36,024 nucleotides of DNA from a virus (taxonomy: Duplodnaviria; Heunggongvirae; Uroviricota; Caudoviricetes): the IMG/VR virus record IMGVR_UViG_2778261396_000003; one strand, 5' to 3'. The position numbers and the translations under genes are program-made. The notes below the pieces were generated by a model. It did not search any database. It had not been told where the DNA came from and saw only the letters and a list, made by a program, of their open reading frames with translations. This document shows positions 1 to 35,737 of the stretch, one piece after another. Within the stretch, counting starts at the first letter, position 1. Every line of letters starts with the position of its first letter.

Positions 1-1032
1 TCAAAAACTTGCTATTGATGTTGGTAGTGTTGCCAGCGGATTAAACCGTAATGCAGTTTCCAGGTGATCCGGTGCCAGATGTGCGTAACGCATAGTCATT
101 TTTATGTCGTGATGTCCGAGGATTTTTTGCAAAGCAAGGATATTTCCACCCGACATCATAAAATGCGCCGCAAACGTATGGCGCAGAACGTGTGTCAGTT
201 GACCGCGAGGGAGCACGATAGACGTTTTTTCCATCACGGATAAAAATTGAAAATAGCAGTCTGTGAAGAAATTGAACCCATCAAGCGCCATGATCTCTTC
301 GTAAAGCTCTTTACTGATAGGGATGCTTCTGTTTTTCTTCCCCTTCGTTCTTACAAAGGTAATTCGGTATTTGGTCACCTGTGAGCGGGTAAGATTTACG
401 GCTTCACGCCAGCGTGCGCCTGTGCTTAAGCATATCTTAACTACCAGTGCCAGAATTGGGTCCTGACGTTTGCAATCAGCCAGCAATTCAACAATCTGCT
501 CATGGGTAAGCCATGCCATCTCTTTTTCTGCGATGGTGAATTTTCGCATGTTCTCCAGTGGGTTCGGATACGACCATTCGCCCAGACGGGATAGTTCGCT
601 AAAAACACTACTTAGATAGCTTTGCTCCAGGTTAATGGTGACCGGGCTTGCTCCTTTCTTCCATTTCTCGCTGAAGTAGATCTCGCCTGTCAGGCGTTTA
701 TCTCGATAGTGGGCAAACATTTTAGAGGTGAGATCGGTTGCAAGAGGATTGCCCAGAGCGTCAACCATCAACAGCAATTTGTCATAGACATGCTGCCCAG
801 CTGTCAGAGATTTACCATGTAGTTTGAACCATAGCTCAACCACGTCTTTCAGTGTTCGACGATCCACTGATTCACCCAGCCAGGGCTTTGCTTCGGTTTC
901 TTCCATCGTGTGGCGCTCAAAAGCCAGTGCTTCGCCTTTGGTAGCGAATTGTTTACGCACACGACGCCCACTTCGTCCGGCGGGGTAACATTCGCAAAGC
1001 CATTTCCCTGTGGTTAGTTTTCGTACTGCCAT
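1..1032 (-). CDS. int: Tyrosine integrase (phage integrase family), 343 aa
   Basis: C-terminal catalytic region HVLRHTFAAHF...ILALQKILGHHDIKMTMRYAHL (R/H-x-x-R...Y pattern); positioned at the prophage edge as in P2/186. Confidence 0.9.
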   Translation of the reverse strand: MAVRKLTTGKWLCECYPAGRSGRRVRKQFATKGEALAFERHTMEETEAKPWLGESVDRRTLKDVVELWFKLHGKSLTAGQHVYDKLLLMVDALGNPLATDLTSKMFAHYRDKRLTGEIYFSEKWKKGASPVTINLEQSYLSSVFSELSRLGEWSYPNPLENMRKFTIAEKEMAWLTHEQIVELLADCKRQDPILALVVKICLSTGARWREAVNLTRSQVTKYRITFVRTKGKKNRSIPISKELYEEIMALDGFNFFTDCYFQFLSVMEKTSIVLPRGQLTHVLRHTFAAHFMMSGGNILALQKILGHHDIKMTMRYAHLAPDHLETALRFNPLATLPTSIASF

Positions 1033-1114
1033 AAAAAGCCCTCATATCAGAGGGCTAAATTTAACTGTATATGTAACCAGTAATCAATGTGTGATTACTA
1101 TGAAACATACATTG

Positions 1115-2791
1115 CTAAGCAACATGTAGTTCATCGTTGGCGGAAGTGGCTGCTTTGCGCTCCTGCTCAATAGCTAGAGACTCTCTATATTCTTTCGCCT
1201 CTGCAAACATTGTCCAGTGGGCGTTGATGTTCATGTCTTCAATAACTGATTTGATTTCTTTTAAATTTACGTTAAAAAACTCTTTTCGTGAGTTAATTTT
1301 ATTGACCTGCTTTTCGTTGAAAACTTTATGCAGATGGTTTTCTAATGATGGTGCATCATCACTATAAATCATCGCATGAACATCGAACGAAAAAGGAACA
1401 CTAGCATCTCCGAGTTCACGAACACGATCAAGTGGTTCAAGGCGGCGTGTCATTCCAATTTTATATACATCTTCGCCAAATGAACCAATATTACTAATGA
1501 TATAGACGTGGCCTGATCTGGTTTGTTGAGCCATAGAAATAGCTCGTTGATTTTTAGCTTCAGCTTCTTCATATTTTAACTGTAGTTCAGCTATTTTTTG
1601 CTCTAAAGCTAAGCGTTGTTCTTCATTTGCAAGCATAAGTTCTTTCGTTGCTTTATTTATAGCTTGCTGAATAGCTTTTTCTTCTTTTTCAGCTTCTTTT
1701 ATCGCTTTTTCATATTCTCTACGAGCTCTTTCCTCTTCACGAAGCTGTTCTTTAATCCTTCTTTGCTCTTCTTTTTCTTCGAGCATAATTTCATTAACTG
1801 CTACACCCCATTTTAGCTCGTTGAGTCTTGCCTGAAGATAGATGTCACTTATTTTTGCGGACCTAAAGGCAGAGCCATTGTAATTTACTAGTTGAAATGC
1901 ATCTTTTATTTCTTGGGAAAGTTTTCCAAAATTGTTGTGTTTGACTTTTGATAAAATACTGTCAACTCTTCCATTGAAGGCATCCAAAACAAAGTTTATG
2001 GCAGTATTACGCCTCTTTTGCTCAACATAATCACACGAAGCAGCTTTATTAGTTTTTATTAATGATTTGGTTAACTCTCTGGCTTTTTGTAATTCCTTGC
2101 CTGCATCTGTAAATTCATAATTTTCTGCCAGCTCATCAAGTACACTACGGTTAGGGATGATCCATTCATCACCATAACCTTCAATTTTATTTTTCATTGA
2201 TTTTGCAACTGCTTCATATTTTTCTGCAAACTCTTTAGCTTCATATGCTGAACCAGCAATCTCCTTTGCTCTTTCTTCTGCATCAGAAATAATTTTTACT
2301 GCATTGTCATTAGCATTTGAGATTAGCTCATTTGCTTTATTATTAGCATTATCAAGACGTTCTTTGGCTTTCAGGCGTGCATCGCGAGCGTCTTTGGTGA
2401 TTGCTATAGCTTCGCTATTAGCGTTGCTTATTGTCATCTGAGCTTGATAATTTGCTTCGTTTACTGTTTTAGCCGCCTTAATTTGGGCTTCATCTATTTT
2501 TTGCTTGGCTATTGAGTCCGCATTTTTTATCTTATTCTCTGCATCCATTACTGCGCTGTGCAATTCTTCGTATTGCCACAATGGTGCTGCTCGCCCTTCA
2601 AGCTCTGATAATTCTCGTACGGTCTGTGCTAGTTTTTCTTGATTTTCAATCAGTTGGTTAGAAAGGGCTATGTTGTTAGCTGTCAGGTTATCTATAGCCG
2701 CTTTGTGTTTTTTACTTTGTTTAAATAATATTACAGCTAGAACAGGGGCGAGAAATGCTAATAAGAGTATAACGATGGCAAATGAATTCAT
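1115..2791 (-). CDS. Membrane-anchored coiled-coil protein with DUF4041-like middle region and C-terminal T5orf172/GIY-YIG-like domain (558 aa); candidate prophage-encoded exclusion/defence protein
   Basis: N-terminal hydrophobic segment FAIVILLLAFLAPVLAVILF; long A/K/E/N-rich heptad-like region; C-terminal HVYIISNIGSFGEDVYKIGMTRRLEPLDRVRELG...PFSFDVHAMIYS resembles GIY-YIG/T5orf172. Sampled GC ~33% against ~50% in core genes; only 20 bp from cI stop, same strand. Confidence 0.7.
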   Translation of the reverse strand: MNSFAIVILLLAFLAPVLAVILFKQSKKHKAAIDNLTANNIALSNQLIENQEKLAQTVRELSELEGRAAPLWQYEELHSAVMDAENKIKNADSIAKQKIDEAQIKAAKTVNEANYQAQMTISNANSEAIAITKDARDARLKAKERLDNANNKANELISNANDNAVKIISDAEERAKEIAGSAYEAKEFAEKYEAVAKSMKNKIEGYGDEWIIPNRSVLDELAENYEFTDAGKELQKARELTKSLIKTNKAASCDYVEQKRRNTAINFVLDAFNGRVDSILSKVKHNNFGKLSQEIKDAFQLVNYNGSAFRSAKISDIYLQARLNELKWGVAVNEIMLEEKEEQRRIKEQLREEERARREYEKAIKEAEKEEKAIQQAINKATKELMLANEEQRLALEQKIAELQLKYEEAEAKNQRAISMAQQTRSGHVYIISNIGSFGEDVYKIGMTRRLEPLDRVRELGDASVPFSFDVHAMIYSDDAPSLENHLHKVFNEKQVNKINSRKEFFNVNLKEIKSVIEDMNINAHWTMFAEAKEYRESLAIEQERKAATSANDELHVA

Positions 2792-2811
2792 TTTAAAATC
2801 CTTTTACTATA

Positions 2812-3408
2812 TTAATTCGAGACTATTGTACTTCTTATACAAGCAACCACTTCAATATCAGAAAATGCACATTCAAAGCTATTCTCTGCTGTTGTAATTT
2901 TAATCATTCCTTTAGGAAGCCTTGTGATTTTTCGAATGGAATAGGTTCCGTCGATATTGATTAACCAGTTTCCATCAAGTACTTCAGAAAATTTTTGATC
3001 ACAAATGTATGTGACGAGTCCATCCTGAACAACAATTGGTGATGAAAGGTTTGCAGGAAGAAATGATGAATCGAAGACATATGAACCGTCTTCAATCATT
3101 TTGCCAGCGGCAAGGCGAAACTTAACAAGCTCTTCTGTAGCTGCTGTCAGCGAGCTTTGCTTAAGGCCTTGTCCGGTAGTTAACCATTTGAGGGAGGTTC
3201 CTGTTTCAAGAGCACATTGGATTATCCAGTCAGCAGGAAATGTATCCCGCAAATACCTGTTCGCTAGTGTGCTTTTTGATACTTCCAAGTGATCAGCTAA
3301 AGCCTGTCGTGTCGTAAAGCCATAGGCTTCGACTAATCGCTCAATCGCAGCCTTACCACCTTTATTGGGATTTATTTTGATCTCACTTGGGTACTTTGAT
3401 GTTGACAT
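2812..3408 (-). CDS. cI: Phage 186-type CI immunity repressor (198 aa)
   Basis: HTH-like segment EAYGFTTRQALADHLEVSKSTLANRY, then CALETG..LKWLTTGQG and DGNWLINIDG motifs recalled from 186 CI; divergent from the early operon. Confidence 0.8.
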   Translation of the reverse strand: MSTSKYPSEIKINPNKGGKAAIERLVEAYGFTTRQALADHLEVSKSTLANRYLRDTFPADWIIQCALETGTSLKWLTTGQGLKQSSLTAATEELVKFRLAAGKMIEDGSYVFDSSFLPANLSSPIVVQDGLVTYICDQKFSEVLDGNWLINIDGTYSIRKITRLPKGMIKITTAENSFECAFSDIEVVACIRSTIVSN

Positions 3409-5558: not shown

Positions 5559-6412
5559 GCACCATCCTGAAATGGGCGGGAAATAAAACCGCCATTATGC
5601 CAGAACTGAAAAAATACCTTCCTGCTGGCCCGCGACTGGTTGAACCTTTCGCGGGTTCCTGTGCTGTGATGATGGAAACGGATTATCCCAGCTATCTGGT
5701 TGCGGATATTAATCCTGATTTAATCAACCTCTATAAAAAGGTTGCCGCTGATTGTGAATCGTTTATATCTCGCGCCAGAGTTTTATTTGAGATCGCAAAC
5801 AGGGAGGTGGCTTATTACAACATAAGGCAGGAGTTTAACTGCTCAACTGAAATTACTGATTTCATGAAAGCGGTATATTTCCTGTATCTCAATCGTCACG
5901 GTTACCGTGGTTTATGTCGCTATAACAAGAGCGGGCATTTCAACATTCCCTACGGTAATTATAAAAATCCGTATTTCCCTGAAAAAGAACTTCGCACATT
6001 TGCAGAAAAAGCCCAGCGAGCAACGTTTATCTGCGCCAGCTTTGATGAAACGCTGGCGATGTTGAAGGCGGGAGATGTGGTGTATTGCGATCCGCCATAT
6101 GACGGTACGTTTTCCGGCTATCACACTGATGGTTTCACTGAAGATGACCAGTATCACCTGGCATCCGTTCTTGAACATCGGTCATCAGAAGGACATCCGG
6201 TCATTGTTTCTAACAGTGACACATCCCTGATCCGTTCGCTGTATCGCAATTTTACTCACCACTATATCAAGGTAAAACGCAGCATCGGTGTGGCAGCTGG
6301 CGAGGGTAAATCAGCAACAGAAATCATTGCTGTTTCCGGGCCGCGCTGCTGGATGGGATTTGATTATTCGCGTGGCGTGGATAGTTCTGCCGTGTACGGA
6401 GTACGTGCATGA
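5555..6412 (+). CDS. dam: Dam-type N6-adenine DNA methyltransferase, 285 aa
   Basis: N-terminal LKWAGNK, FAGSCAV (AdoMet motif) and catalytic DPPY; ATG 5555 preceded by GGAGGTG; stop overlaps A start. Confidence 0.85.
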
Positions 6413-8823
6413 GTCATGCCGATATGAACAACTGCTGCGGCTTTAACGAGGCTGCCGCAGCATTCTCATGGAACAGCCCGAAAAAGGCCATTAACCCTTA
6501 TCTGGACCCGGCGGAAGTTGCGCCGGTTTCTACGCTTTCAAACCTGATCACTCTGTACGCTGCCGATAACGAGCAGGAACAGTTGCGCCGCGAGGCACTG
6601 AGTGATCAGGTCTGGGAGCGTTATTTCTTTAATGAATCACGTGATCCTGTCCAGCGCGAAATGGAGCAGGATAAGCTCATTAGCCGGGCAAAGCTGGCGC
6701 ATGAGCAGCAGCGTTTTAATTCAGACATGGTCATTCTGGCGGACGTCAACGCCCAGCCTTCCCATATCAGCAAGCCGCTGATGCAACGTATTGAATACTT
6801 CAGCAGCCTGGGCAGGCCAAAGGCTTATTCCCGCTATTTACGTGAGACGATTAAGCCATGTCTGGAACGACTGGAGCATGTACGCGACAGTCAGCTATCT
6901 GCATCTTTTCGCTTTATGGCAAGCCATGAAGGGCTGGACGGCCTGCTGATCCTGCCTGAAATGAGTCAGGATCAGGTGAAACGCCTGTCCACCCTGGTAG
7001 CTGCGCATATGAGTATGTGCCTTGATGCAGCTTGTGGTGATTTGTATGCCACCGATGACGTTAAGCCAGAAGAAATCCGCAAGACATGGGAAAAGGTGGC
7101 AGCGGAAACCCTGCGTCTGGATGTCATCCCACCTGCGTTTGAGCAACTCCGTCGGAAAAGAAACCGCCGTAAACCCGTGCCCTATGAACTCATTCCGGGT
7201 TCGCTGGCGCGTATGTTGTGCGCCGACTGGTGGTATCGGAAATTATGGAAGATGCGTTGCGAATGGCGGGAAGAGCAGTTGCGCGCTGTTTGCCTGGTCA
7301 GCAAAAAAGCATCTCCTTATGTCAGCTATGAAGCCGTGATGCATAAACGTGAGCAGCGCCGTAAGTCGCTGGAGTTTTTCCGTTCTCATGAACTGGTGAA
7401 CGAAGACGGCGACACGCTGGACATGGAGGATGTGGTAAACGCCAGCAGCAGCAACCCTGCGCATCGCCGCAATGAGATGATGGCCTGTGTTAAAGGTCTG
7501 GAGCTTATCGCGGAAATGCGCGGTGACTGCGCCGTTTTTTACACTATCACCTGTCCGTCGCGTTTCCATTCCACGCTAAATAACGGCAGACCAAACCCGA
7601 CCTGGACAAACGCGACGGTAAGACAAAGCAGCGATTATCTGGTCGGCATGTTTGCTGCATTTCGTAAGGCGATGCACAAAGCCGGGTTGCGCTGGTATGG
7701 CGTGCGGGTGGCTGAGCCGCATCATGACGGCACAGTTCACTGGCACCTGTTGTGTTTCATGCGCAAAAAAGACCGCCGTGCCATTACTGCATTACTGCGT
7801 AAGTTTGCCATCCGTGAAGACCGCGAGGAGCTGGGCAATAACACTGGGCCGCGCTTTAAGTCTGAGTTGATTAACCCGCGCAAAGGAACGCCGACAAGCT
7901 ACATCGCGAAATATATCAGTAAGAACATTGACGGTCGTGGTCTGGCTGGCGAGATCAGCAAGGAAACGGGTAAATCTCTGCGTGATAACGCTGAATACGT
8001 GAATGCCTGGGCGTCTCTGCATCGTGTTCAGCAATTCCGCTTCTTTGGTATTCCGGGGCGTCAGGCTTATCGTGAACTTCGCTTGCTGGCTGGTCAGGCG
8101 GCAAGGCAACAGGGTGACAAAAAAGCAGGTGCGCCGGTACTGGATAACCCGCGTCTTGATGCCATTCTGGCTGCTGCTGATGCTGGCTGTTTTGCCACCT
8201 ACATCATGAAGCAGGGCGGCGTGCTGGTTCCCCGCAAATATCACCTTATCAGAACAGCTTATGAAATTAACGAAGAGCCGACCGCCTATGGCGATCACGG
8301 TATTCGTATTTATGGCATCTGGTCACCCATTGCAGAGGGCAAGATCTGCACTCATGCCGTGAAGTGGAAAATGGTTCGTAAGGCCGTTGACGTTCAGGAG
8401 GCGGCAGCCGACCAGGGCGCTTGCGCCCCTTGGACTCGTGGCAATAACTGTCCCCTTGCTGAAAATTTGTACCAACAAGGGAAAGACAAATCAGCTGATG
8501 GGGATACCAGAACGGATATCACCCGCATGGATGACAAGGAGTTGCACGATTACCTGCACTGTATGAACAAAAAAGAGCGCCGGGAACTGGCAGCAAGATT
8601 ACGCCTGGTTAAACCGAAACGGCGTAAAGACTACAAACAGCGAATTACAGAGCATCAGCGTCAGCAGCTCGTCTATGAACTGAAGTCCAGAGGATTTGAT
8701 GGCAGCGAGAAAGAGGTCGATTTGCTCCTTCGCGGTGGCAGTATTCCGTCAGGAGCAGGCCTGCGTATCTTCTATCGGAACCAGCGTTTGCAGGAAGATG
8801 ATAAGTGGCGGAACCTGTATTAA
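6409..8823 (+). CDS. A: P2 gpA-type rolling-circle replication initiator (HUH endonuclease), 804 aa
   Basis: HUH motif [10 protein letters not shown] and paired-tyrosine motif [13 protein letters not shown]; size and position as P2 A. Confidence 0.9.
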
Positions 8824-9749: not shown

Positions 9750-10724
9750 ATGGGGTTAGGATTAAAAGACGCTATTGTGCATACCGCTGCGTTTCATCAA
9801 AAGGAAACTAATGAATTGCAATTGCCAAACAATCATTGGCATCCTGGTTTTATCACTGTCTTAGCAGCTTACGTGAATCATCACAAAATTACCGAAGATA
9901 ACTGTGTTTTGTCATGCCCTGGCTATATGCGAGCTATCAATTTACATGGTGCTTTATGGGGAGAGGATCAGTATCAACAGGAACGTGTAAATGTTGGAAG
10001 AAATTACAGTTTGGTTACAGCATTAACCAATGTTGAAGCTGTTGACGTTGCCACTGGTAGTATTAACAGTTGTGTAAGGCAGTTAACATTCCCTGATCGT
10101 GATCCGAGAGATTGTCCCAAGGGACTTACAGATCTAACCCATGTTATAGGTGAGCTTCACGATAACGTTTGGTCGCATGGAAAATCAACGGGTTTTTCTT
10201 TTGCACAACGTTCGGCTGTACCCCACACTCAAAAAAAAGAGCACTATTTAGAATTTTCTTTGGCGGACTGTGGGTTAGGATTTCTCCGAGAATTGCGGCG
10301 AGCTGGTATACCCGGAATTGAGACTCACCAGGATGCGATCGCATGGTGTATTCAAGAGGGACATTCATCTAAGCATGCTGATTTGCAGGATGATTGGGCA
10401 CAGCAGCTTCCCCAGGACTTTATTGGGGGTAGTGTGTTTGGCCACGGGGTTTCGGTCAAAGAAAAAGATAATAATCATCAAGGGCTTGGGTTGTATCACT
10501 TGATGAAATTGATAAAAACATATAACGGGGAATTGCAACTGGCTTCAGGAAATGTATGCTTAGAAGCAATAGGTGATGAAGTGAGCTATACTGAATTACG
10601 TACTGAATGGCCGGGTGTAGCAATTTCTTGCCGTTTTAAGATTCATGAACTGGCAGTCGATAAAGATAGCGAAGAAAATGACCCTCAGCTTATGGAAATA
10701 ATGCGGGCGTTAGGAGGAGAGTAA
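9750..10724 (+). CDS. GHKL/Bergerat-fold ATPase (histidine-kinase-like ATP-binding domain) with ~130-aa unique N-terminal region, 324 aa
   Basis: N-box-like ELHDNVWSH, G1-like DCGLG, G2-like GLGLYHL, read from the translation; sampled GC ~37%; stop overlaps next start (TAATG). Confidence 0.75.
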   Translation: MGLGLKDAIVHTAAFHQKETNELQLPNNHWHPGFITVLAAYVNHHKITEDNCVLSCPGYMRAINLHGALWGEDQYQQERVNVGRNYSLVTALTNVEAVDVATGSINSCVRQLTFPDRDPRDCPKGLTDLTHVIGELHDNVWSHGKSTGFSFAQRSAVPHTQKKEHYLEFSLADCGLGFLRELRRAGIPGIETHQDAIAWCIQEGHSSKHADLQDDWAQQLPQDFIGGSVFGHGVSVKEKDNNHQGLGLYHLMKLIKTYNGELQLASGNVCLEAIGDEVSYTELRTEWPGVAISCRFKIHELAVDKDSEENDPQLMEIMRALGGE

Positions 10725-11062
10725 TGAACAAAATCGCATACAAGTTACCCGAGGGTGACCTGGCTTCGCGCAATCAGGCTATCCCCCAACGACACAAGAT
10801 TGAAGGGTTCATTAAAGAAGGGTATACCGTAGATTTAGATCTGAGCGGTGTTTATTCAATTTCAGAATCATACTCTGATGAAATCTTTGGTGTTTTGGTA
10901 GTGAAATTCGGTGTAACCAAAGTTTTGAGTCAAGTTAAGGTTCGCAATGCACCCCCTTCAATTTTAAAAAGTATTGCAAAAGTGATCCAACGCCGTAGTA
11001 ATGAAGTAGCATCAAAAAAGGTTCATTCCGTTGGATTTGATGGTTTATACGCCGTTTGTTAA
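10724..11062 (+). CDS. Small protein (112 aa), tentatively STAS-like (DUF4325-type)
   Basis: Translationally coupled to the upstream ATPase; size and predicted alternation of hydrophobic strands consistent with a STAS-type fold, but the domain call is from memory only. Confidence 0.65.
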   Translation: MNKIAYKLPEGDLASRNQAIPQRHKIEGFIKEGYTVDLDLSGVYSISESYSDEIFGVLVVKFGVTKVLSQVKVRNAPPSILKSIAKVIQRRSNEVASKKVHSVGFDGLYAVC

Positions 11063-11079: not shown

Positions 11080-11110
11080 AAAAGGCGCTGAGATTAGCGC
11101 CTTTTCTTTT
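11080..11110. terminator. Bidirectional rho-independent terminator hairpin AAAAGGCGCT-GAGATT-AGCGCCTTTT between the accessory pair and convergent Q
   Basis: GC stem flanked by A-run on one side and T-run on the other. Confidence 0.6.
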
Positions 11111-12149
11111 ATTCCTGAACACCTAAAACATAGTCATCAAAACGTATTACTTCTGCACCCACCCATTCGTTTAGTTCATGTAGTCGCTTCTGTAGTGGCA
11201 TCAATTCATTGCGAACAAATACAAGACTAGCCTTCTCCACATCCCCAAAACCCCCAACATTATTTGGCATAATCCCCATCATCTGTGGCGGAACGCGATG
11301 TGCTGCCATCATGTCATCGCGGCTGACATTTTTGATATTCAGAAACTCATCCTTCGCCGCAACTTCTGACAAAGGGATGATCTGAAGGCCGTCCTTTTTG
11401 CCGTTAGGCGAGTACATAAACAGGTTGCGGAAGTTGCCTGGACCTTTGGCGCTTTTCATCGCGTTGCGGAGATTGTTCACATCCTCCTGATTCTGCGCGG
11501 CGTCGGTCATGTACATGATGAAGCCTGCATGGCTGCCGTTGATGTAATACTTACGGCGGAACAGCGTGGCGGACTCATTGAGCAGGGCTGACGGAATGGC
11601 AGAAAGATAGCCGGGCAGGCCGTAGATCTCCTGGTTAATGTCCGGTTCCATCAGATGAAAGATGCTGCCTTTCGTGAACTGATACGGCTGTGTTGTCATA
11701 CCGTATTGCACAAACCAGTAGGTATCCAGGTCTAACCCGCGTCGTGTGTATTTCGCCAAGGCAGGTTCAAGGGCGATAACTTCACCGAAGCGGTTCGTGC
11801 GTTTCTCCAGGTAGGCGTTACCAAATACCAGATAGTCTTGCACAAAACGCGAAAAAGCCTGCTGGCTGAGCAGCGGATGAGGGATATAGGTACTGGTCAG
11901 AATGTTGCACTTTACTGCAATCGGGGAACTGTGATGCACGGCGGCGCGGAAGGTGCGCGCCAGTCCGTCAAAGCTGACGGGCGGCTCATACCAACGGTCC
12001 ATCTGTATGCATTCCACATAGTCCAGTAATTCTCGGCGGTCCAGAACAGGAACGGGATCGCCGAAGCTGAATGCTTCGGCTGAAGTCTGGCTTTTATACT
12101 GGATGTGATTCATCGCCGCAGCGCGGTTTTTCTTACTCTTTCCCATCAA
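11109..12149 (-). CDS. Q: Portal protein (P2 gpQ-like), 346 aa
   Basis: Size, position and orientation upstream of terminase large subunit as in P2. Confidence 0.85.
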   Translation of the reverse strand: MMGKSKKNRAAAMNHIQYKSQTSAEAFSFGDPVPVLDRRELLDYVECIQMDRWYEPPVSFDGLARTFRAAVHHSSPIAVKCNILTSTYIPHPLLSQQAFSRFVQDYLVFGNAYLEKRTNRFGEVIALEPALAKYTRRGLDLDTYWFVQYGMTTQPYQFTKGSIFHLMEPDINQEIYGLPGYLSAIPSALLNESATLFRRKYYINGSHAGFIMYMTDAAQNQEDVNNLRNAMKSAKGPGNFRNLFMYSPNGKKDGLQIIPLSEVAAKDEFLNIKNVSRDDMMAAHRVPPQMMGIMPNNVGGFGDVEKASLVFVRNELMPLQKRLHELNEWVGAEVIRFDDYVLGVQE

Positions 12150-22358: not shown

Positions 22359-23854
22359 GCACAAAATTTTATACCCTGCTGACGGATATTGGCGCGGCGA
22401 AACTTGCCAGCGCCGCCGCGCTCGGTGTGCCGCTAAAAATTACCCATATGGCGGTGGGCGATGGCGGCGGAGTATTGCCAACGCCGGACGCAAAGCAGAC
22501 GGCACTGGTAAATGAGAAACGCCGGGCTGCGCTGAATATGCTTTATATCGACCCGCAGAATAGCAGCCAGATTATTGCTGAACAGGTGATCCCTGAAAAC
22601 GAGGGCGGTTGGTGGATACGTGAAGTGGGCCTGTTTGATGAGTCCGGGGCATTGATTGCCGTGGGCAACTGCCCGGAAAGCTATAAGCCGCAACTGGCTG
22701 AAGGCAGCGGGCGCACCCAGACCGTGCGCATGGTGCTGATTACCAGCAGTACGGACAATATCACCCTGAAAATCGACCCTGCTGTAGTGCTGGCAACCCG
22801 CAAGTATGTGGATGACAAGGTACTGGAGCTGAAGGTGTACGTGGATGACCTGATGGCAAAACATCTTGCTGCACAGGACCCACATTCACAGTACGCGCCA
22901 AAAGCCAGCCCGACATTTACCGGAACCCCCAAAGCGCCAACGCCAGCGGCGGGGAATAATACCACGCAGGTTGCGACCACTGCGTTTGTACAGGCGGCAC
23001 TGACGGCCCTTATTAATGGTGCGCCAGCCACGCTGGACACGCTGAAAGAAATAGCCGCAGCCATTAACAATGATCCGAATTTCAGTACCACCATTAACAA
23101 TGCGCTGGCACTAAAAGCACCGTTGTCGAGTCCGGCACTCACCGGAACGCCAACAGCCCCCACGGCGGCGCAGTCGGTCAACAATACACAGATTGCCACC
23201 ACGGCTTTTGTGAAATCAGCAATTGCGGCAATGGTGGGTTCTGCCCCTGCGGCACTGGATACACTGAATGAACTGGCGGCGGCGCTGGGGAATGACCCTA
23301 ACTTTTCAACAACAGTGCTTAATGCACTGGCAGGCAAACAACCGCTGGACAATACGCTTACTAATTTGAGTGGAAAGGATGTGGCTGGTCTTCTCGCATA
23401 CCTTGGTTTGGGAGAAGGCTCTGCATTACCTGTTGGTGTCCCTGTTCCGTGGCCTTCAGCTACGCCGCCAACAGGCTGGCTGAAATGCAATGGCGCTGCC
23501 TTTGATAAGGTTAAATATCCCCGTCTTGCTACAGCATATCCATCAGGGAAACTACCTGATCTCCGCGGTGAGTTTATTCGTGGCTGGGATGATGGGCGCG
23601 GCATTGATACAGGGCGTGCTTTATTGAGTATTCAGAGTGATGAAGTCAGAAAGCTCGCATTAAAATACTGGGGACCAGCTTCAATCGGTTCACCATCAAA
23701 AACATTTGCACTCAGCGAAAGTGCCGGTGGCGGGTTGTACACGGATGGAATAAGTCAGGCAAGCGGTGGGATTATCAACGCTTTTCAGCTCCCCGGCGGG
23801 AGTGAAACCCGTCCACGAAATATTGCATTTAACTATATCGTGAGGGCTGCATAA
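22355..23854 (+). CDS. H: Tail fibre protein (P2 gpH-like), 499 aa; constant N-terminal part plus variable C-terminus inside the invertible segment (current orientation)
   Basis: Position, size, and internally duplicated NDPNFSTT-containing units; the 26-bp crossover site falls at codons ~346-354 (LGLGEG). Confidence 0.85.
   Translation: MSTKFYTLLTDIGAAKLASAAALGVPLKITHMAVGDGGGVLPTPDAKQTALVNEKRRAALNMLYIDPQNSSQIIAEQVIPENEGGWWIREVGLFDESGALIAVGNCPESYKPQLAEGSGRTQTVRMVLITSSTDNITLKIDPAVVLATRKYVDDKVLELKVYVDDLMAKHLAAQDPHSQYAPKASPTFTGTPKAPTPAAGNNTTQVATTAFVQAALTALINGAPATLDTLKEIAAAINNDPNFSTTINNALALKAPLSSPALTGTPTAPTAAQSVNNTQIATTAFVKSAIAAMVGSAPAALDTLNELAAALGNDPNFSTTVLNALAGKQPLDNTLTNLSGKDVAGLLAYLGLGEGSALPVGVPVPWPSATPPTGWLKCNGAAFDKVKYPRLATAYPSGKLPDLRGEFIRGWDDGRGIDTGRALLSIQSDEVRKLALKYWGPASIGSPSKTFALSESAGGGLYTDGISQASGGIINAFQLPGGSETRPRNIAFNYIVRAA
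22904..23347 (+). repeat. Tandem internal duplication in H (two ~74-codon units, aa 184-257 and 258-331)
   Basis: ..TGTPKAPTPAAGNNTTQVATTAFV..GAPATLDTLKEIAAAINNDPNFSTT..ALALKAPL vs ..TGTPTAPTAAQSVNNTQIATTAFV..SAPAALDTLNELAAALGNDPNFSTT..ALAGKQPL; diverged at nucleotide level. Confidence 0.6.
23391..23416. other. Left 26-bp crossover site of tail-fibre invertible segment (gix/hix-like): TTCTCGCATACCTTGGTTTGGGAGAA
   Basis: Matches the reverse complement of the site at 25233-25258 at 21/26 positions, including an identical 14-bp arm TTGGTTTGGGAGAA. Confidence 0.6.
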
Positions 23855-24456
23855 TGGATAACGCCGTATTAAATAGCGAGCTTATTGCCACGAAGGCGGG
23901 GAATATTACCGTCTATAACTATGATGGTGAAACTCGGGAATATATTTCCACATCAAATGAATATCTTGCCATTGGTGTCGGTATCCCTGCATATTCCTGT
24001 TTAGATGCGCCAGTTACACATAAAGCTGGTTATGCTATCTGCCGCTCAGCAGATTTTAACTCATGGGAATATGTGCCAGACCATCGCGGTGAAATCGTCT
24101 ATAGCACAGAAACAGGAGAATCAAAAGAAATCACAGCTCCGGGTGATTACCCTGAAAATACAACCACTATCGCCCCTTTATCTCCATACGATAAATGGGA
24201 TGGTGAGAAATGGGTGACCGATACTGAGGCACAGCATAGCGCCGCAGTCGAAGCGGCAGAAGCACAGCGCCAGTCACTGATTGATGCTGCTATGGCTTCC
24301 ATCAGTCTGATTCAACTGAAATTGCAGGCCGGACGGAAACTGACGCAGGCAGAAACAACCCGACTTAACGCCGTGCTGGATTACACTGACGCGGTGACGG
24401 CAACAGATACCAGCACCGCGCCGGATGTCATCTGGCCTGAACTGCCGGAGGCGTAG
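23854..24456 (+). CDS. G: Tail fibre assembly chaperone (P2 gpG-like), 200 aa, inside invertible segment
   Basis: Immediately follows H; convergent with a second assembly gene. Confidence 0.75.
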   Translation: MDNAVLNSELIATKAGNITVYNYDGETREYISTSNEYLAIGVGIPAYSCLDAPVTHKAGYAICRSADFNSWEYVPDHRGEIVYSTETGESKEITAPGDYPENTTTIAPLSPYDKWDGEKWVTDTEAQHSAAVEAAEAQRQSLIDAAMASISLIQLKLQAGRKLTQAETTRLNAVLDYTDAVTATDTSTAPDVIWPELPEA

Positions 24457-24868
24457 GCCATTCAATATCTGGAGCACTGGAAATATCAACCATTTCCAGT
24501 GCGTCCAGATAATCAAGCCATGAATTATATTGCGCCAGTTCCTCACCTTTCAGACGACCAATAGCAGCCTTTCCTGGCCACTGCTTACTGTTAATATATT
24601 CATTAACTCGATTTATGAGTGCCTGTTTTTTTCGTTCCGCTTCTGACAGTTGTTCTTCATGAGTTAGCGGCGGTACGTCATCCCATGCAGGATAGCCATC
24701 ATCACCCGCAACTCTCACCTTCCCTGGAGGTGAGGACAGGTACTTAATAAATATATCCTCATCAACTTCAACTCCATTATGAGGCCATAACCCAGACTCC
24801 TTATACTGACTTTCCAGAGTAAATGGGTAAAACATATTAGTTTTAGCATCGTAAAGATATTTACTCAT
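24428..24868 (-). CDS. Alternative tail fibre assembly chaperone (G'), 146 aa
   Basis: ATG at 24868 (minus strand) preceded by AGGAAG; convergent and overlapping G by 29 nt; follows the alternative H C-terminal exon. Confidence 0.7.
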   Translation of the reverse strand: MSKYLYDAKTNMFYPFTLESQYKESGLWPHNGVEVDEDIFIKYLSSPPGKVRVAGDDGYPAWDDVPPLTHEEQLSEAERKKQALINRVNEYINSKQWPGKAAIGRLKGEELAQYNSWLDYLDALEMVDISSAPDIEWPTPPAVQAR

Positions 24869-24869
24869 T

Positions 24870-25245
24870 TTATCTTCCTGTAGCAAACCAGCGGCAACCA
24901 GCGACAGTTGGAACATTGAAGGATGGATTTCCTTTATCAAGAGATCCCAGGTTCTCTGCTATGACATTTGAGTTAGTCAATTTATAGAATTGCCATACTG
25001 ACATTTTCCCTGCCACAGGAGCCTGGTCATGTTCATTAATAGAAATGACGGCTGTCGGAAATGGGATAGGAAAATTAATCAAAACTTCATTTGTTGTGGC
25101 CCCAGTTAGCCCCCATTGTTCAATATAACCATCCGGGCTTCGCCTCCATCCCGTCGTTGTATCTCCCCCACACTCCCACGCTGACATATCAGGAATTTGG
25201 TTTTGCCCGTTACCCACATCCCGTTTTGCCGCTTCTCCCAAACCA
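24870..25245 (-). other. Promoter-less alternative C-terminal tail-fibre exon (Hv'), fused in frame to H after inversion
   Basis: Minus-strand ORF with no plausible start of its own; its translation crosses the right crossover site with the same ..GLGE.. junction as H. Confidence 0.6.
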
Positions 25246-25258
25246 ACGTTTATGAAAA
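25233..25258. other. Right 26-bp crossover site of invertible segment: TTCTCCCAAACCAACGTTTATGAAAA
   Basis: Resembles hixL/gix as recalled (TTCTTGAAAACCAAGGTTTTTGATAA); inverted relative to 23391-23416; ~55 bp upstream of invertase. Confidence 0.6.
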
Positions 25259-25313
25259 TGCAGAGATAACGGCTAACTGGCATCATCCCCGGTTTTTATT
25301 CAGGGGATTGATC

Positions 25314-25880
25314 ATGCTTATTGGCTATGTACGCGTGTCAACAAATGACCAGAACACCGATTTGCAACGTAATGCACTGAACTGCGCGGGATGTGAGCGG
25401 ATTTTTGAGGACAAAATCAGTGGCACTAAGTCCGACAGACCGGGACTGAAAAAACTGCTCAGGACATTATCGGCAGGTGACACTCTGGTTGTCTGGAAGC
25501 TGGACAGGTTGGGGCGCAGTATGCGGCATCTCGTTACGCTGATAGAAGAGCTGCGCCAGCGTGGCGTGAATTTCCGAAGCCTGACTGACAGTATTGATAC
25601 CAGTACCCCAATGGGCCGTTTCTTTTTTCATGTCATGGGGGCCCTGGCTGAAATGGAGCGCGAACTGATAGTTGAACGTACCAGGGCGGGGCTGGCTGCA
25701 GCTCGCGCCAAAGGCAGAGTAGGTGGACGCCGTCCTAAGTTGATCACCGAACAGTGGGCACAGATTGGACGTTTACTCGAGGCCGGAGAATCAAGACAGC
25801 GTATTGCACTGATTTTTGATGTAGGTGTTTCCACAATTTATAGAAAATTTCCGGCAAATAAGAGCAATGAATCCCCCTGA
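25314..25880 (+). CDS. Serine DNA invertase (Hin/Gin/Pin/Cin family), 188 aa
   Basis: N-terminal catalytic motif MLIGYVRVSTNDQNTDLQ and C-terminal HTH (GESRQRIALIFDVGVSTIYR); internal ATG chosen over ORF-track start 25197. Confidence 0.9.
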   Translation: MLIGYVRVSTNDQNTDLQRNALNCAGCERIFEDKISGTKSDRPGLKKLLRTLSAGDTLVVWKLDRLGRSMRHLVTLIEELRQRGVNFRSLTDSIDTSTPMGRFFFHVMGALAEMERELIVERTRAGLAAARAKGRVGGRRPKLITEQWAQIGRLLEAGESRQRIALIFDVGVSTIYRKFPANKSNESP

Positions 25881-33404: not shown

Positions 33405-35090
33405 TTATCCTAATCCTGGCCATACCATGACGATGATTGTCCCTGCCAGCGTCAGCAGGACGTTGGCGATTGCATAGGTGCCCGCATAGCCCAGCGCCGG
33501 GATGTTACTGCGAGCTGTATCACTGATGATCTCCATTGCCGGCGCGCAGGTACGTGCGCCCATCATTGCGCCGAACAACAGTGCGCGGTTCATTCGCAAT
33601 ACATAAGCACCGAACAAGAAACAGATAACCACGGGCACCAGACTGACAATCAATCCGGCAATCAACATCTGACCGCCAATCGCGCCCAGGCCGTTATTAA
33701 TACCGCTACCGGCGCTCAGACCAACGCCTGCCATAAACACCATCAAGCCGAACTCTTTCACCATGCTTAATGCACCCTGCGGAATGTAACCGAAGGTCGG
33801 GTGGTTAGCACGCATAAAGCCCAGCATAATTCCGGCGAATAACAACCCGGCAGCGTTCCCCATGCCGAAACTGAATGTGCTGAACTGGAAGGTGATCATC
33901 CCGATCATCAGCCCAATAACAAAGAAGGCGCAGAATGCCAGCAGGTCAGTGACCTGGCTGTGAATCGAGATAAAGCCGATGCGATCGGCGATGGTTTTTA
34001 CGCGGCGGGCATCGCCGCTGACTTGTAAAACGTCACCTTTGTTAAGCACGACGTTGTCATCTATCGGCATCTCAATCTGGCTACGAATGACGCGGTTAAG
34101 GAAGCAACCGTGATCGGTCAACTTCAGTTGTGCGAGACGTTTACCTACAGCGTTATGGTTTTTAACGACCACTTCTTCAGTGACGATACGCATGTCGAGA
34201 AGGTCACGATCGAAAACTTCTTTACCGTTACGGAAGCTGGGATCGAGTCGGGCATGGGCGTCGGGATAGCCTACCAACGCTATTTCATCGCCCATTTGTA
34301 GCACGGCATCACCGTCTGGATTTGCCAGAATCCCGTTACGTCGAATACGTTCAATGTAGCAGCCGGTTTGTCGATAAATACCCAGTTCACGCAGATTTTT
34401 GCCGTCGGTCCAGGCCACCAGTTCCGGGCCGACGCGATAGGCGCGGATCACCGGTAAATAAACCTTACGGTTGGCATCAGTGTCCAGGCCACGTTCGCGG
34501 GCGATTTGCTGGGCGCTGGTCTGTAAGTCCTGATGCTGCAATTTCGGCAAGTAACGCGCACCAACAATCAAACTCACCAGACCGATTAAATAGGTTAAGG
34601 CATACCCGAGGCTCAGATTATCCAGTGCCAGTGAGAGCTGCCTGCTTTCCATGCCGGAATGACGCAGTGTATCGCCAGCACCGACCAGAACCGGTGTCGA
34701 CGTCATAGAGCCTGCTAACATACCGGCCGTCAGGCCAATATCCCAGCCAAACAGCTTACCTAACCCTAAGGCGATCACCAGCGCACTGCCAACCATCACC
34801 AGTGCTAACATTAGGTAATTTTTCCCATCGCGAAAAAAAATGGAAAAAAAGTTCGGTCCGGCTTCGACCCCGACGCAGAAAATAAACAGCATAAAGCCAA
34901 GATTAAGCGCATCGGTGTTAATGCTGAAATGTTGTTGGCCTAATAACAGCGATACGACTAAAACGCCAATGGAATTACCCAGTTGGATCGAACCAAGTCG
35001 TAACTTTCCGAGACATAGCCCAAGCGCGAGGACCACAAATAATAACAGAATGTAATTCCCATTTAACAATTCGGCGACGTTTATATTCAC
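33405..35090 (-). CDS. ybjL: Putative transport protein YbjL (membrane transporter with duplicated TM domains and central TrkA-C-like region), 561 aa
   Basis: [29 protein letters not shown]... matches E. coli YbjL as recalled; host context with ybjM and grxA. Confidence 0.8.
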
Positions 35091-35359
35091 GGAGGCTAAC
35101 TTCTTGTTTACTAGTAAGCTGTTGAAAGAAATGGTAATTTACGATAATGTTTTTTACCAGAATTCAGGGCGCAGATTCATTCAGCGCACCTAAACGATAG
35201 TAAAGTAACAATATATTTTACTAGTGTAATCACATTAGGTATCAACGGCTATATGAATTGCGTTGGCCTATATTAGCATGGAATGCGAAGCGGCTTTATC
35301 TTACTGAACGCCACACTGGCGAAAAATGTGTTCGATAGACGCAGTGTCAGGAGGAACGA

Positions 35360-35737
35360 GTGAAACATAAACAACGTTGGGCGGGGGCAATCTGCTGTTT
35401 TGTCCTCTTCATTGTGGTGTGCCTTTTTCTGGCGACGCACATGAAAGGCGCTTTTCGGGCTGCCGGGCATCCTGAAATCGGCTTGCTATTTTTCATTCTT
35501 CCTGGAGCAGTCGCCAGCTTCTTTTCACAGCGTAGAGAAGTCCTGAAACCTCTGTTTGGCGCAATGCTGGCGGCACCCTGTTCGATGCTCATTATGCGGC
35601 TGTTTTTTTCACCGACGCGCTCATTCTGGCAAGAGCTGGCATGGTTATTAAGTGCGGTGTTCTGGTGTGCGCTGGGGGCACTGTGTTTCTTATTTATCAG
35701 TAGTTTGTTTAAACCACAGCACAGAAAAAATCAGTAA
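35360..35737 (+). CDS. ybjM: Inner membrane protein YbjM, 125 aa
   Basis: Small polytopic membrane protein between ybjL and grxA as in E. coli. Confidence 0.7.
   Translation: MKHKQRWAGAICCFVLFIVVCLFLATHMKGAFRAAGHPEIGLLFFILPGAVASFFSQRREVLKPLFGAMLAAPCSMLIMRLFFSPTRSFWQELAWLLSAVFWCALGALCFLFISSLFKPQHRKNQ

Follow-up and report, generated by a model that had tools for sequence, protein, structure and literature searches.

A SNIPE-family gene between cI and int of a 186-like prophage: very probable anti-phage cargo of a lysogenic operon

In phage 186, the repressor gene cI and the integrase gene int overlap by 1 nt, and consequently nothing lies between them. What, then, is encoded by a large ORF that separates these two genes in a related prophage, and is it cargo or part of the phage core? 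The window analyzed here, a 36,024-nucleotide stretch of viral DNA (IMG/VR record IMGVR_UViG_2778261396_000003), comes from a 186-like, P2-family myovirus prophage that is integrated beside rcdA/ybjL in an enterobacterial chromosome. On the minus strand, the gene for the 186-type CI immunity repressor (2812..3408; Pfam Phage_CI_repr and Phage_CI_C) is the first gene of a presumed lysogenic operon, and the tyrosine integrase gene int (1..1032, minus strand; Pfam Int_N and Phage_integrase) forms its downstream end. The ORF listing places between them an ATG-initiated frame of 558 aa plus a stop codon (1115..2791, minus strand). The original prediction had described just such an ORF, 20 bp downstream of cI and upstream of int, which follows 82 bp on; of the span it had given, 1115-2811, the start is exact, but the end takes in the 20-bp spacer to the cI stop codon, the ORF itself reaching only to 2791. 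The ORF has a GC content of 37.0%, whereas the whole window stands at 51.5%, int at 47%, and cI at 40%; its lowest individual 300-bp windows fall to 34-36%. Thus, it had rightly been called strongly AT-rich, although the figure of ~33% GC was a little low. On compositional grounds, this low GC content marks the ORF as apparent acquired cargo.

The product is matched over most of its length by profiles of a single defense family. The PADLOC PD-Lambda-1 profile PDLC03976 aligns to residues 105-550 through positions 35-481 of 491 (E=2e-120, 401 bits), a second PADLOC PD-Lambda-1 profile covers the same residues 105-550 (E=5.8e-117), and PHROG 1847 is matched with E=2.5e-133. PD-λ-1 has been shown by experiment to defend against λ (Vassallo et al. 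2022, PMC9519451), and it has since been renamed SNIPE, an inner-membrane-anchored GIY-YIG nuclease that cuts phage DNA during injection (Saxton et al., Nature 2026, PMC13190303). For comparison, the reference SNIPE used was the 500-aa protein at L003:9001-10503; the PD-λ-1 accession and coordinates were taken from the supplement of Vassallo 2022, and the protein was verified by its agreement with the published primers (MTQTPLLLAI at the 5' end, RKTPEFADAI at the 3' end) and with the size of ECOR26 RCP76574.1 (1503 nt, 500 aa). BLASTP against this reference gives 50% identity over 293 aa spanning DUF4041, the linker, and the nuclease (E=5e-77), with a constant offset of +70. By these profile and alignment matches, the 558-aa product belongs to the SNIPE (PD-λ-1) family. 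This family is already named and mechanistically characterized, and the identity of the gene as SNIPE is itself already known: newer RefSeq annotations call it "SNIPE associated domain-containing protein."

The N-terminal part of the protein is that of a tethered molecule. A scan with Kyte-Doolittle hydropathy (19-residue windows, threshold 1.6) finds windows above 1.6 starting at residues 1-9 only, with a peak of 3.16, and a single transmembrane helix is placed at residues 4-23, FAIVILLLAFLAPVLAVILF (2723..2782, minus strand). It is directly followed by KQSKKHK, and consequently an N-out/C-in topology is predicted. The product is thus predicted, from hydropathy alone, to be a single-pass membrane protein, in agreement with the hydrophobic anchor that had been proposed. 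The predicted helix and positive-inside pattern match the like N-terminal layout of the reference SNIPE, MTQTPLLLAIIFLLVVLVLYIAAIKRIKK, for which the topology has been established with PhoA-LacZα fusions (PMC13190303). In the published description of the family, membrane targeting relies on a single-pass helix located among the first 70 amino acids, with a periplasmic N-terminus and a cytoplasmic remainder (PMC13190303); the helix predicted at 4-23 falls inside this range.

Beyond the anchor extends a long helical stalk of ~180 residues (residues 24-203; 2183..2722, minus strand), of which A, K, E, and N make up 53% and which lacks proline from residue 80 to 200. AlphaFold2 models it as part of a nearly unbroken helix 2-203 (helices 2-179 and 181-203); the A/K/E/N-rich, coiled-coil-like stretch noticed earlier is thus present. 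Relative to its counterpart in the reference SNIPE, the stalk has 70 additional residues. [quoted passage not shown] 2026, PMC13190303). On the stalk, NCBIfam yields weak, sub-threshold matches to DivIVA and ATP-synthase b/E profiles. Saxton et al. have already tabulated ATP-synthase-b and DivIVA-like classes for SNIPE homologues with transmembrane helices, and it is in these classes that the sub-threshold matches place the stalk.

The remaining parts are those of a SNIPE nuclease. DUF4041 (PF13250, now named 'SNIPE' in the precomputed Pfam tables) occupies residues 267-322 (1826..1993, minus strand; E=3.1e-12, 46.6 bits vs a cutoff of 27). In SNIPE, this module serves to bind the tape measure protein as well as DNA (PMC13190303). 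The region is only 28% identical to that of the reference. In the family alignments, F272, N287, and N303 show no variation or almost none. At the positions of published gain-of-function mutations, the protein has S292 for E223, K327 for W257, and Q375 for K305; one of these mutations is W257R, and K327 is likewise basic. A charged helical linker (residues 323-425; 1517..1825, minus strand; AlphaFold2 helices 316-387 and 390-425), 47% identical to that of the reference, leads to the GIY-YIG nuclease domain (residues 427-520; 1232..1513, minus strand). Here Pfam finds T5orf172 at 427-520 (E=3.2e-17) and MUG113 at 443-520 (E=3.6e-20); both, like DUF4041, score above the curated cutoffs, so that the two domains named in the original prediction, a DUF4041-like middle and a T5orf172/GIY-YIG C-terminus, are found where they had been expected. 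The nuclease domain is 72% identical to that of the reference. Its catalytic residue, E414, was placed by means of the published E414A primer, which encodes DAPSL[A]KKLHDVF, and it aligns with E484 (codon 1340..1342, minus strand; translation PSLENHL). E484 is invariant in family alignments of 61 and 63 sequences, as are Y430, G446, T448, R449, R450, E459, and N497. Thus, by alignment, the catalytic glutamate is conserved. The full-length AlphaFold2 model (pLDDT 81) is elongated, consisting of a helix, a small globular domain, a second helix, and an α/β domain, a shape that agrees with the published description of SNIPE (PMC13190303). A Foldseek search of this model against the PDB returned only non-significant coiled-coil matches, and a sequence search of solved structures gave nothing at E≤1.

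The gene is present in 163 of 5,426 complete E. coli genomes (~3%), and the subfamily also occurs in many genomes of Klebsiella, Citrobacter, Salmonella, and Enterobacter. In Klebsiella, the layout is identical: cI, 20 bp, the gene, 82 bp, int. Relative to the Klebsiella allele, dN is 0.105 and synonymous sites are saturated; wherever a dN/dS ratio can be calculated, it lies at 0.03-0.07. This strong amino acid conservation indicates purifying selection, in a qualitative sense only, since dS is saturated in most segments.

How the gene is expressed can be approached through its two spacers. In the 20-bp spacer to cI (2792..2811, minus strand), an AAAGGA Shine-Dalgarno sequence precedes the ATG by 7 nt, and a promoter/terminator scan finds no promoter-like or terminator-like site within this spacer; the sole terminator-like match upstream of the ORF on the same strand lies inside the cI coding sequence. 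Given the 20-bp spacing, a spacer free of such sites, and the analogy with the pL/pE operon of 186, we infer that the gene would be co-transcribed with cI and expressed in the lysogen. A consensus scan reveals no sigma-70-like site on the minus strand upstream of either cI or the ORF, and the operon promoter was not located. On the other side, the 82-nt spacer to int (1033..1114, minus strand) folds as two hairpins (-30.3 kcal/mol, z=-5.35). The second (1037..1056, minus strand; AGCCCTC-TGATAT-GAGGGCT, then TTTTT) abuts the int ATG and holds the only Shine-Dalgarno-like element for int. This spacer is the conserved left border of a cargo slot: ~60 nt of it are kept across prophages with differing cargo, and related prophages carry in the same place the PADLOC candidate PDC-M18, the KAP-NTPase PDC-S20, or unknown genes. 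The gene therefore sits in a variable cargo slot between cI and int.

Given all of these findings, the locus is very probably a lysogenic operon, cI - SNIPE - int, in which a 186-like prophage carries a SNIPE-family anti-phage protein as cargo, and three other explanations have to be set against this reading. Its position within the cI-int operon, and a layout kept between E. coli and Klebsiella prophages, might indicate a core gene of the 186 lineage with a role in integration, excision, immunity, or the control of lysogeny, rather than an accessory moron. However, close prophages at the same rcdA site and with the same int-proximal flank hold unrelated genes in the slot, and among the 344 E. 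coli genomes with this flank, just 163 carry the SNIPE gene. Compared across relatives, the interval is thus empty in 186 and filled with unrelated cargo in related prophages, which is not the behavior of a conserved core gene. Since the reference homologue resides in a lambdoid prophage, at ren-nin, and the GC content of the window gene is low, a core function is very unlikely. Public records offer another identity: GenBank entries for vB_EcoM-813R9 and Klebsiella phage KP12 label the gene chromosome segregation ATPase, and JGI records call it 'V-type ATPase subunit H', names that, together with the weak NCBIfam SMC, DivIVA, and ATP-synthase matches, would suggest a structural or segregation-type coiled-coil protein with no defense role. 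Assignment to any of these three families was rejected, because the NCBIfam scores fall well short of the curated cutoffs (SMC, 15.5 bits vs 729.4, on the linker helix only; DivIVA, 23 bits vs 260) and Pfam finds no ATPase domain in the 558-aa protein. These matches are confined to compositionally biased helix, whereas PD-Lambda-1 is matched strongly and over the full length. A segregation protein is therefore effectively refuted already, its probability being negligible, and the "chromosome segregation ATPase" labels on near-identical public phage genes are mislabelings.

The remaining alternative accepts the SNIPE architecture but assigns it another job, either as an abortive or toxin-like membrane nuclease or in the exclusion of P2-like myoviruses or of conjugative or plasmid DNA. 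It would account for the fact that the regions implicated in specificity, the N-terminal region and DUF4041, diverge most (24% and 28% identity), for the different residues at published gain-of-function positions (S292/E223, K327/W257, Q375/K305), and for a carrier that is a myovirus prophage rather than the lambdoid prophage of the reference gene. Nevertheless, the nuclease and linker retain 72% and 47% identity, the catalytic Glu is intact, the transmembrane helix and positive-inside pattern are arranged as in the reference, and the sequence bears no sign of a different effector logic. Furthermore, the reference SNIPE defends directly, does not block plasmid transformation, and does not act on myoviruses or podoviruses (PMC13190303). 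Another job is consequently improbable, if less so than the other two alternatives. The earlier conception of a membrane-tethered, nuclease-like exclusion or defense protein is supported by the PADLOC PD-Lambda-1 match to a known family; the earlier reading as a whole was real and correctly interpreted, while the family name, the RefSeq SNIPE label, and the cI-int cargo site were already known.

Taken together, these results lead to a model of the SNIPE-family cargo whose steps are taken by homology from the experimentally studied SNIPE and whose basis in the window is the architecture, the family membership, the catalytic Glu, the selection, and the slot position. In this model, the protein would be made in the lysogen alongside the repressor and seated in the inner membrane, where auto-inhibition and separation from the chromosome would restrain its nuclease. 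Upon injection of a genome by a competitor, most likely a siphovirus, the DUF4041 region would engage both the tape measure protein and the DNA as it enters, and the GIY-YIG domain would then cut this DNA at the entry site. The cell and its resident prophage would be protected without cell death. For the 558-aa subfamily, the target range, the membrane partner, and a direct as opposed to an abortive outcome are extrapolated from the reference SNIPE, whose action requires the tape measure protein or ManYZ (PMC13190303). Divergence of the longer stalk and of the DUF4041 surface probably adjusts the choice of membrane partner and the recognition of tape measure proteins, and hence the target range. 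More tentatively, and with somewhat less than even probability, the subfamily may use another membrane partner and recognize another set of tape measure proteins than the ECOR26 prototype; in addition, its dose may track repressor transcription, with the conserved hairpins insulating int from the cI-cargo transcript. This idea of a different recognition rests on the 70-residue-longer stalk, the 28%-identical DUF4041, and the basic K327 at the W257R position, and if true, the defense spectrum would be distinct from that of ECOR26 SNIPE.

What has been gained is a correct functional annotation rather than a discovery. It implies that the prophage would equip its host with a nuclease acting at the injection stage, directed most probably against siphovirus competitors. 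With the subfamily in ~3% of complete E. coli genomes and in other enterobacteria, it is relevant to the prediction of host range in phage therapy. Moreover, as a natural variant in both regions that are proposed to determine SNIPE specificity, the subfamily would provide a useful structure-function comparison, and the several uncharacterized cargo genes in the cI-int slot of rcdA-integrated 186-like prophages are reasonable defense candidates.

Comparison with known systems places the gene more exactly. According to two reports, cI-int is a defense hotspot in P2-related, K139-like phages of Vibrio (Rousset et al. 2022, PMC9122126), and 'integrase-primase' is a minor hotspot in P2-like prophages (NAR 2026, PMC13586616). 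Both describe interchangeable defense systems in the slot, as here, but they cover Vibrionaceae phages or an aggregate count only; SNIPE/PD-λ-1 is not named at the cI-int site in the available part of PMC9122126 or in the main text of PMC13586616. Zorya and Kiwa are, like SNIPE, membrane-localized and act at the injection step (PMC13190303), but they are not homologous, being multi-protein systems that sense envelope perturbation and lack the fusion of DUF4041 to GIY-YIG. The PADLOC candidate PDC-S57 has the T5orf172/GIY-YIG domain in common (E=4.5e-20 over residues 424-546), but its match is to the nuclease domain only; like other T5orf172-only proteins, it lacks the DUF4041, stalk, and transmembrane architecture. 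The SNIPE of E. coli ECOR26 (RCP76574.1, equivalent to WP_000195116.1, 500 aa) differs in its setting, a lambdoid prophage in which it lies between ren and nin, whereas the window gene belongs to a 186-like myovirus prophage and lies within its cI-int operon. It also differs in length: the 558-aa protein is 58 aa longer overall, having 70 more residues ahead of DUF4041 and 12 fewer in its tail. Yet both are prophage-borne, single-gene systems, and they have the same order of parts: helix, basic cluster, stalk, DUF4041, linker, GIY-YIG/T5orf172, and C-terminal helix.

A 558-aa ORF with an ATG start is indeed present between cI and int on the minus strand, at 1115..2791. Of the span given in the original prediction, 1115-2811, the start stands, but the end corresponds to the ORF end at 2791 plus the 20-bp spacer that leads to the cI stop. 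The ORF is also AT-rich as claimed (37.0% GC versus 51.5% for the window), although the sampled figure of ~33% lies below the local 300-bp values of 34-38%. PADLOC returns a near full-length match to PD-Lambda-1 (residues 105-550, E=2e-120), and its existing models already detect the gene; in PHROGs, the protein belongs to phrog_1847, a family without annotated function. PD-λ-1 was obtained from ECOR26 by functional selection for λ resistance (PMC9519451); Saxton et al. (Nature 2026, PMC13190303) later characterised it and gave it the name SNIPE. The system is one that is already known, named, and mechanistically characterised, and the proposal of a membrane-tethered nuclease-like exclusion or defence protein was a correct reading.

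The proposed domain names are all three borne out by Pfam, each above the curated cutoff: DUF4041 at residues 267-322 (E=3.1e-12), T5orf172 at residues 427-520 (E=3.2e-17), and MUG113 at residues 443-520 (E=3.6e-20). The predicted hydrophobic anchor corresponds to a single predicted transmembrane helix at residues 4-23 (FAIVILLLAFLAPVLAVILF), which is followed by KQSKKHK and is the sole segment that hydropathy marks as hydrophobic enough to cross the membrane. Beyond it lies the stretch that had been described as coiled-coil-like and rich in Ala, Lys, Glu, and Asn; these account for 53% of residues 24-203. In a full-length AlphaFold2 model (63-sequence alignment, mean pLDDT 81), residues 2-203 form one long helix comprising the transmembrane segment and a stalk, residues 217-315 form a small helical globular region that includes DUF4041, and a second long helix (316-425) leads to an α/β domain (427-520) and a terminal helix. 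Coiled-coil matches swamped the Foldseek output obtained with this model, and residues 421-558 were therefore modelled alone (pLDDT 91.8, pTM 0.82).

SNIPE is a single-pass inner-membrane protein with a periplasmic N-terminus and an otherwise cytoplasmic body; its DUF4041 is a DNA-binding module that also contacts the tape measure proteins of siphoviruses, and its GIY-YIG domain, in which E414 is the catalytic residue, cuts phage DNA as it is injected (PMC13190303). When the transmembrane helix is removed, the nuclease is toxic to the host (PMC13190303). Defence is direct and non-abortive and is aimed at λ and many siphoviruses, but not at BASEL myoviruses and podoviruses (PMC13190303). For the window protein, the analysis establishes architecture, family membership, catalytic residues, fold, conservation, and cargo status; we infer expression, localisation, activity, and target range by homology. 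[quoted passage not shown] As a competing phage injects, DUF4041 together with the linker would engage both its tape measure protein and the DNA on its way in; the GIY-YIG domain would then cut this DNA. The carrier of the gene is itself a myovirus, a class that the reference SNIPE did not target, and its DNA in the lysogen is never injected; thus, the system should act on heterotypic competitors and spare the resident prophage.

The window carries a 186-like prophage of the P2 family, whose genes run, left to right, int, the SNIPE gene, cI, apl/cox, cII, fil, dam, gpA, portal, terminase, capsid, tail, sheath, tape measure protein, and gpD, with host ybjL (an Asp-Al_Ex/TrkA_C permease) and ybjM at the right end (33405..35737). 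Given this host DNA, the prophage ends near 32.9-33.4 kb. At the left end, bases 1..20 lie outside the alignments to the best-matching phages and prophages, and int encodes 343 aa in the window and in LD22-1 versus 350 aa in most related prophages, which together suggest that the 3' end of int overlaps the attachment site. Pfam identifies the neighbors of the SNIPE gene as a 186-type cI repressor (2812..3408, minus strand) and a tyrosine integrase (int, 1..1032, minus strand), the latter 82 bp downstream. In phage 186, cI and int share one nucleotide and make up, together with orf69, the pL/pE lysogenic operon; in the window, the SNIPE gene is thus inserted into an operon of this type. The layout of cI, 20 bp, gene, 82 bp, and int is identical in Klebsiella contigs.

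This interval holds interchangeable cargo. In prophages at the same rcdA site as this one, the ~60 nt adjoining int are common to all and the cargo differs: LD22-1 carries the two-gene candidate system PDC-M18A/B (PADLOC; L005:4586-6524), E2348/69 a KAP-family NTPase that matches PDC-S20 and PifA (L006:4580-7267), and Ecol_224 a hypothetical protein of 329 aa that matches DUF2207_C, a predicted membrane protein, below threshold (L007:4584-7050). Klebsiella phage 4LV2017 has a 349-aa hypothetical (L002:1851-3844) with no Pfam or PADLOC match; this and the 329-aa protein are defence candidates. In another 186-like prophage (L011), a 53%-identical SNIPE homologue again lies between cI and int, within an expanded interval of ~6 kb (L011:2533-10054). 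Upstream of the homologue are unknown proteins of 57 aa and 521 aa; downstream, on the opposite strand, are unknowns of 260 aa and 44 aa and a Peptidase_M78/HTH_3 (ImmA/IrrE-Xre-like) pair, so that the interval resembles a small defence island occupying this slot. A cI-int defence hotspot is already described for Vibrio K139-like P2-related phages (PMC9122126), and the location is a recognised minor hotspot. Related prophages also encode long "CI" proteins of 293-313 aa (L005:5586-6524, L006:6386-7267, L007:6127-7050, L002:2903-3844), in which two Phage_CI_repr HTH stretches and one Phage_CI_C indicate a tandem HTH duplication. E2348/69 encodes both a normal 189-aa CI and one long form; the long forms may serve as the immunity repressor or belong to the cargo.

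Co-transcription of the SNIPE gene with cI is the simplest reading. In a consensus scan, the 20-bp spacer, where an AAAGGA ribosome-binding site lies 7 nt before the ATG, shows neither a promoter-like nor a terminator-like site, and the single terminator-like match upstream of the ORF on the same strand falls within the cI coding sequence. The promoter scan did not find a pL equivalent. The 82-nt spacer before int (1033..1114, minus strand) folds into a pair of hairpins with an energy of -30.3 kcal/mol (z=-5.35). The second (1037..1056, minus strand) has a 7-bp GC-rich stem followed by TTTTT and abuts the int ATG; its 3' arm (GAGGG) provides the sole Shine-Dalgarno-like element available to int. 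Among related prophages, the ~60 nt that include this hairpin are kept irrespective of which cargo is present; the Klebsiella phage has a G·U-compatible change in the hairpin. The hairpin may terminate or insulate the cI-cargo transcript, act as a translational gate for int, or do both.

Elsewhere in the window, the classical P2 defence hotspot, bordered by gpA (6409..8823) and the portal gene (11109..12149, minus strand), holds genes for a 324-aa protein (9750..10724, plus strand) and a 112-aa DUF4325 (STAS-like) protein (10724..11062, plus strand) that overlap by one base. The former has no Pfam or PADLOC match, and since no known system is assigned, the pair is a candidate two-gene defence cargo. 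Two tail-fibre-assembly genes in opposite orientation (23854..24456, plus; 24428..24940, minus) and a serine resolvase/invertase with Resolvase and HTH_7 domains (25197..25880, plus) resemble an invertible host-range switch of the Mu G-segment or P1 C-segment type (23854..25880).

An exhaustive profile-free search yielded 3,366 clusters (representatives at 50% identity) at E≤1e-3, including 1,405 at E≤1e-30; several clusters at 40-55% identity align over residues ~2 to ~548. Proteins of 558 aa that are 82-100% identical occur in Escherichia, Klebsiella, Citrobacter, Salmonella, Enterobacter, Raoultella, and others. At ≥80% coverage, the gene is present in 163 of 5,426 complete E. coli genomes, and in 163 of the 344 that have the int-proximal flank. 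Comparison with a Klebsiella allele of 84% identity gives a dN of 0.105 with synonymous sites saturated; the transmembrane helix and stalk are least conserved (67-75% identity) and the core, residues 204-522, most (90-93%). RefSeq names the gene "DUF4041 domain-containing protein" in older entries and "SNIPE associated domain-containing protein" in newer ones. Other labels are misleading: "chromosome segregation ATPase" appears in two public phage records, those of vB_EcoM-813R9 and Klebsiella phage KP12 (accessions ON470620.1, L001:4095-5771, and OM835953.1), and JGI records call the gene "vacuolar-type H+-ATPase subunit H". The former was rejected: Pfam detects no ATPase domain, and the score for the SMC model, 15.5 bits, compares with a cutoff of 729. 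Both labels arise as artefacts of the coiled-coil composition.

For comparison with the prototype, the reference gene was recovered from a complete E. coli genome via the published cloning primer. Its 500-aa translation starts MTQTPLLLAI and ends RKTPEFADAI, in agreement with the primers, and its size agrees with the coordinates in the Vassallo supplement. This gene is carried by a lambdoid prophage, where ren and the nin region flank it, and the window gene by a 186-like one; the gene therefore moves between phage types. BLASTP aligns 293 residues of the two proteins at 50% identity (E=5e-77), the offset staying constant at +70. By region, identity is 28% in DUF4041 (window residues 265-325), 47% in the linker (326-425), 72% in the nuclease (426-522), and 31% in the C-terminal tail (523-558). 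The published E414A mutagenic primer encodes DAPSL[A]KKLHDVF, and the aligned window sequence is DAPSLENHLHKVF; E484 is thus the counterpart of E414. Y430, G446, T448, R449, R450, E459, E484, and N497 are invariant among diverse family members (61- and 63-sequence alignments).

The predicted structure of the window protein has the same elongated architecture as that published for SNIPE (PMC13190303). Upstream of DUF4041, the window protein is 70 residues longer than the prototype. The N-terminal region (residues 1-264) is not detected by BLASTP against the reference and reaches 24% identity in a forced global alignment. The stalk gives DivIVA and ATP-synthase b/E subunit matches, all sub-threshold. 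Among SNIPE homologues, 59% have one predicted transmembrane helix in the first 70 residues, and "ATP synthase subunit b" and DivIVA are among the commonest N-terminal similarities (PMC13190303). Because Saxton et al. tabulate such N-termini, the difference lies inside the described variation of the family. Finally, at positions where substitutions change SNIPE specificity, the window protein has S292 (E223), Q320 (N250), K327 (W257), Q375 (K305), and N389 (T319); states like E223K and W257R are common in SNIPE homologues (PMC13190303).
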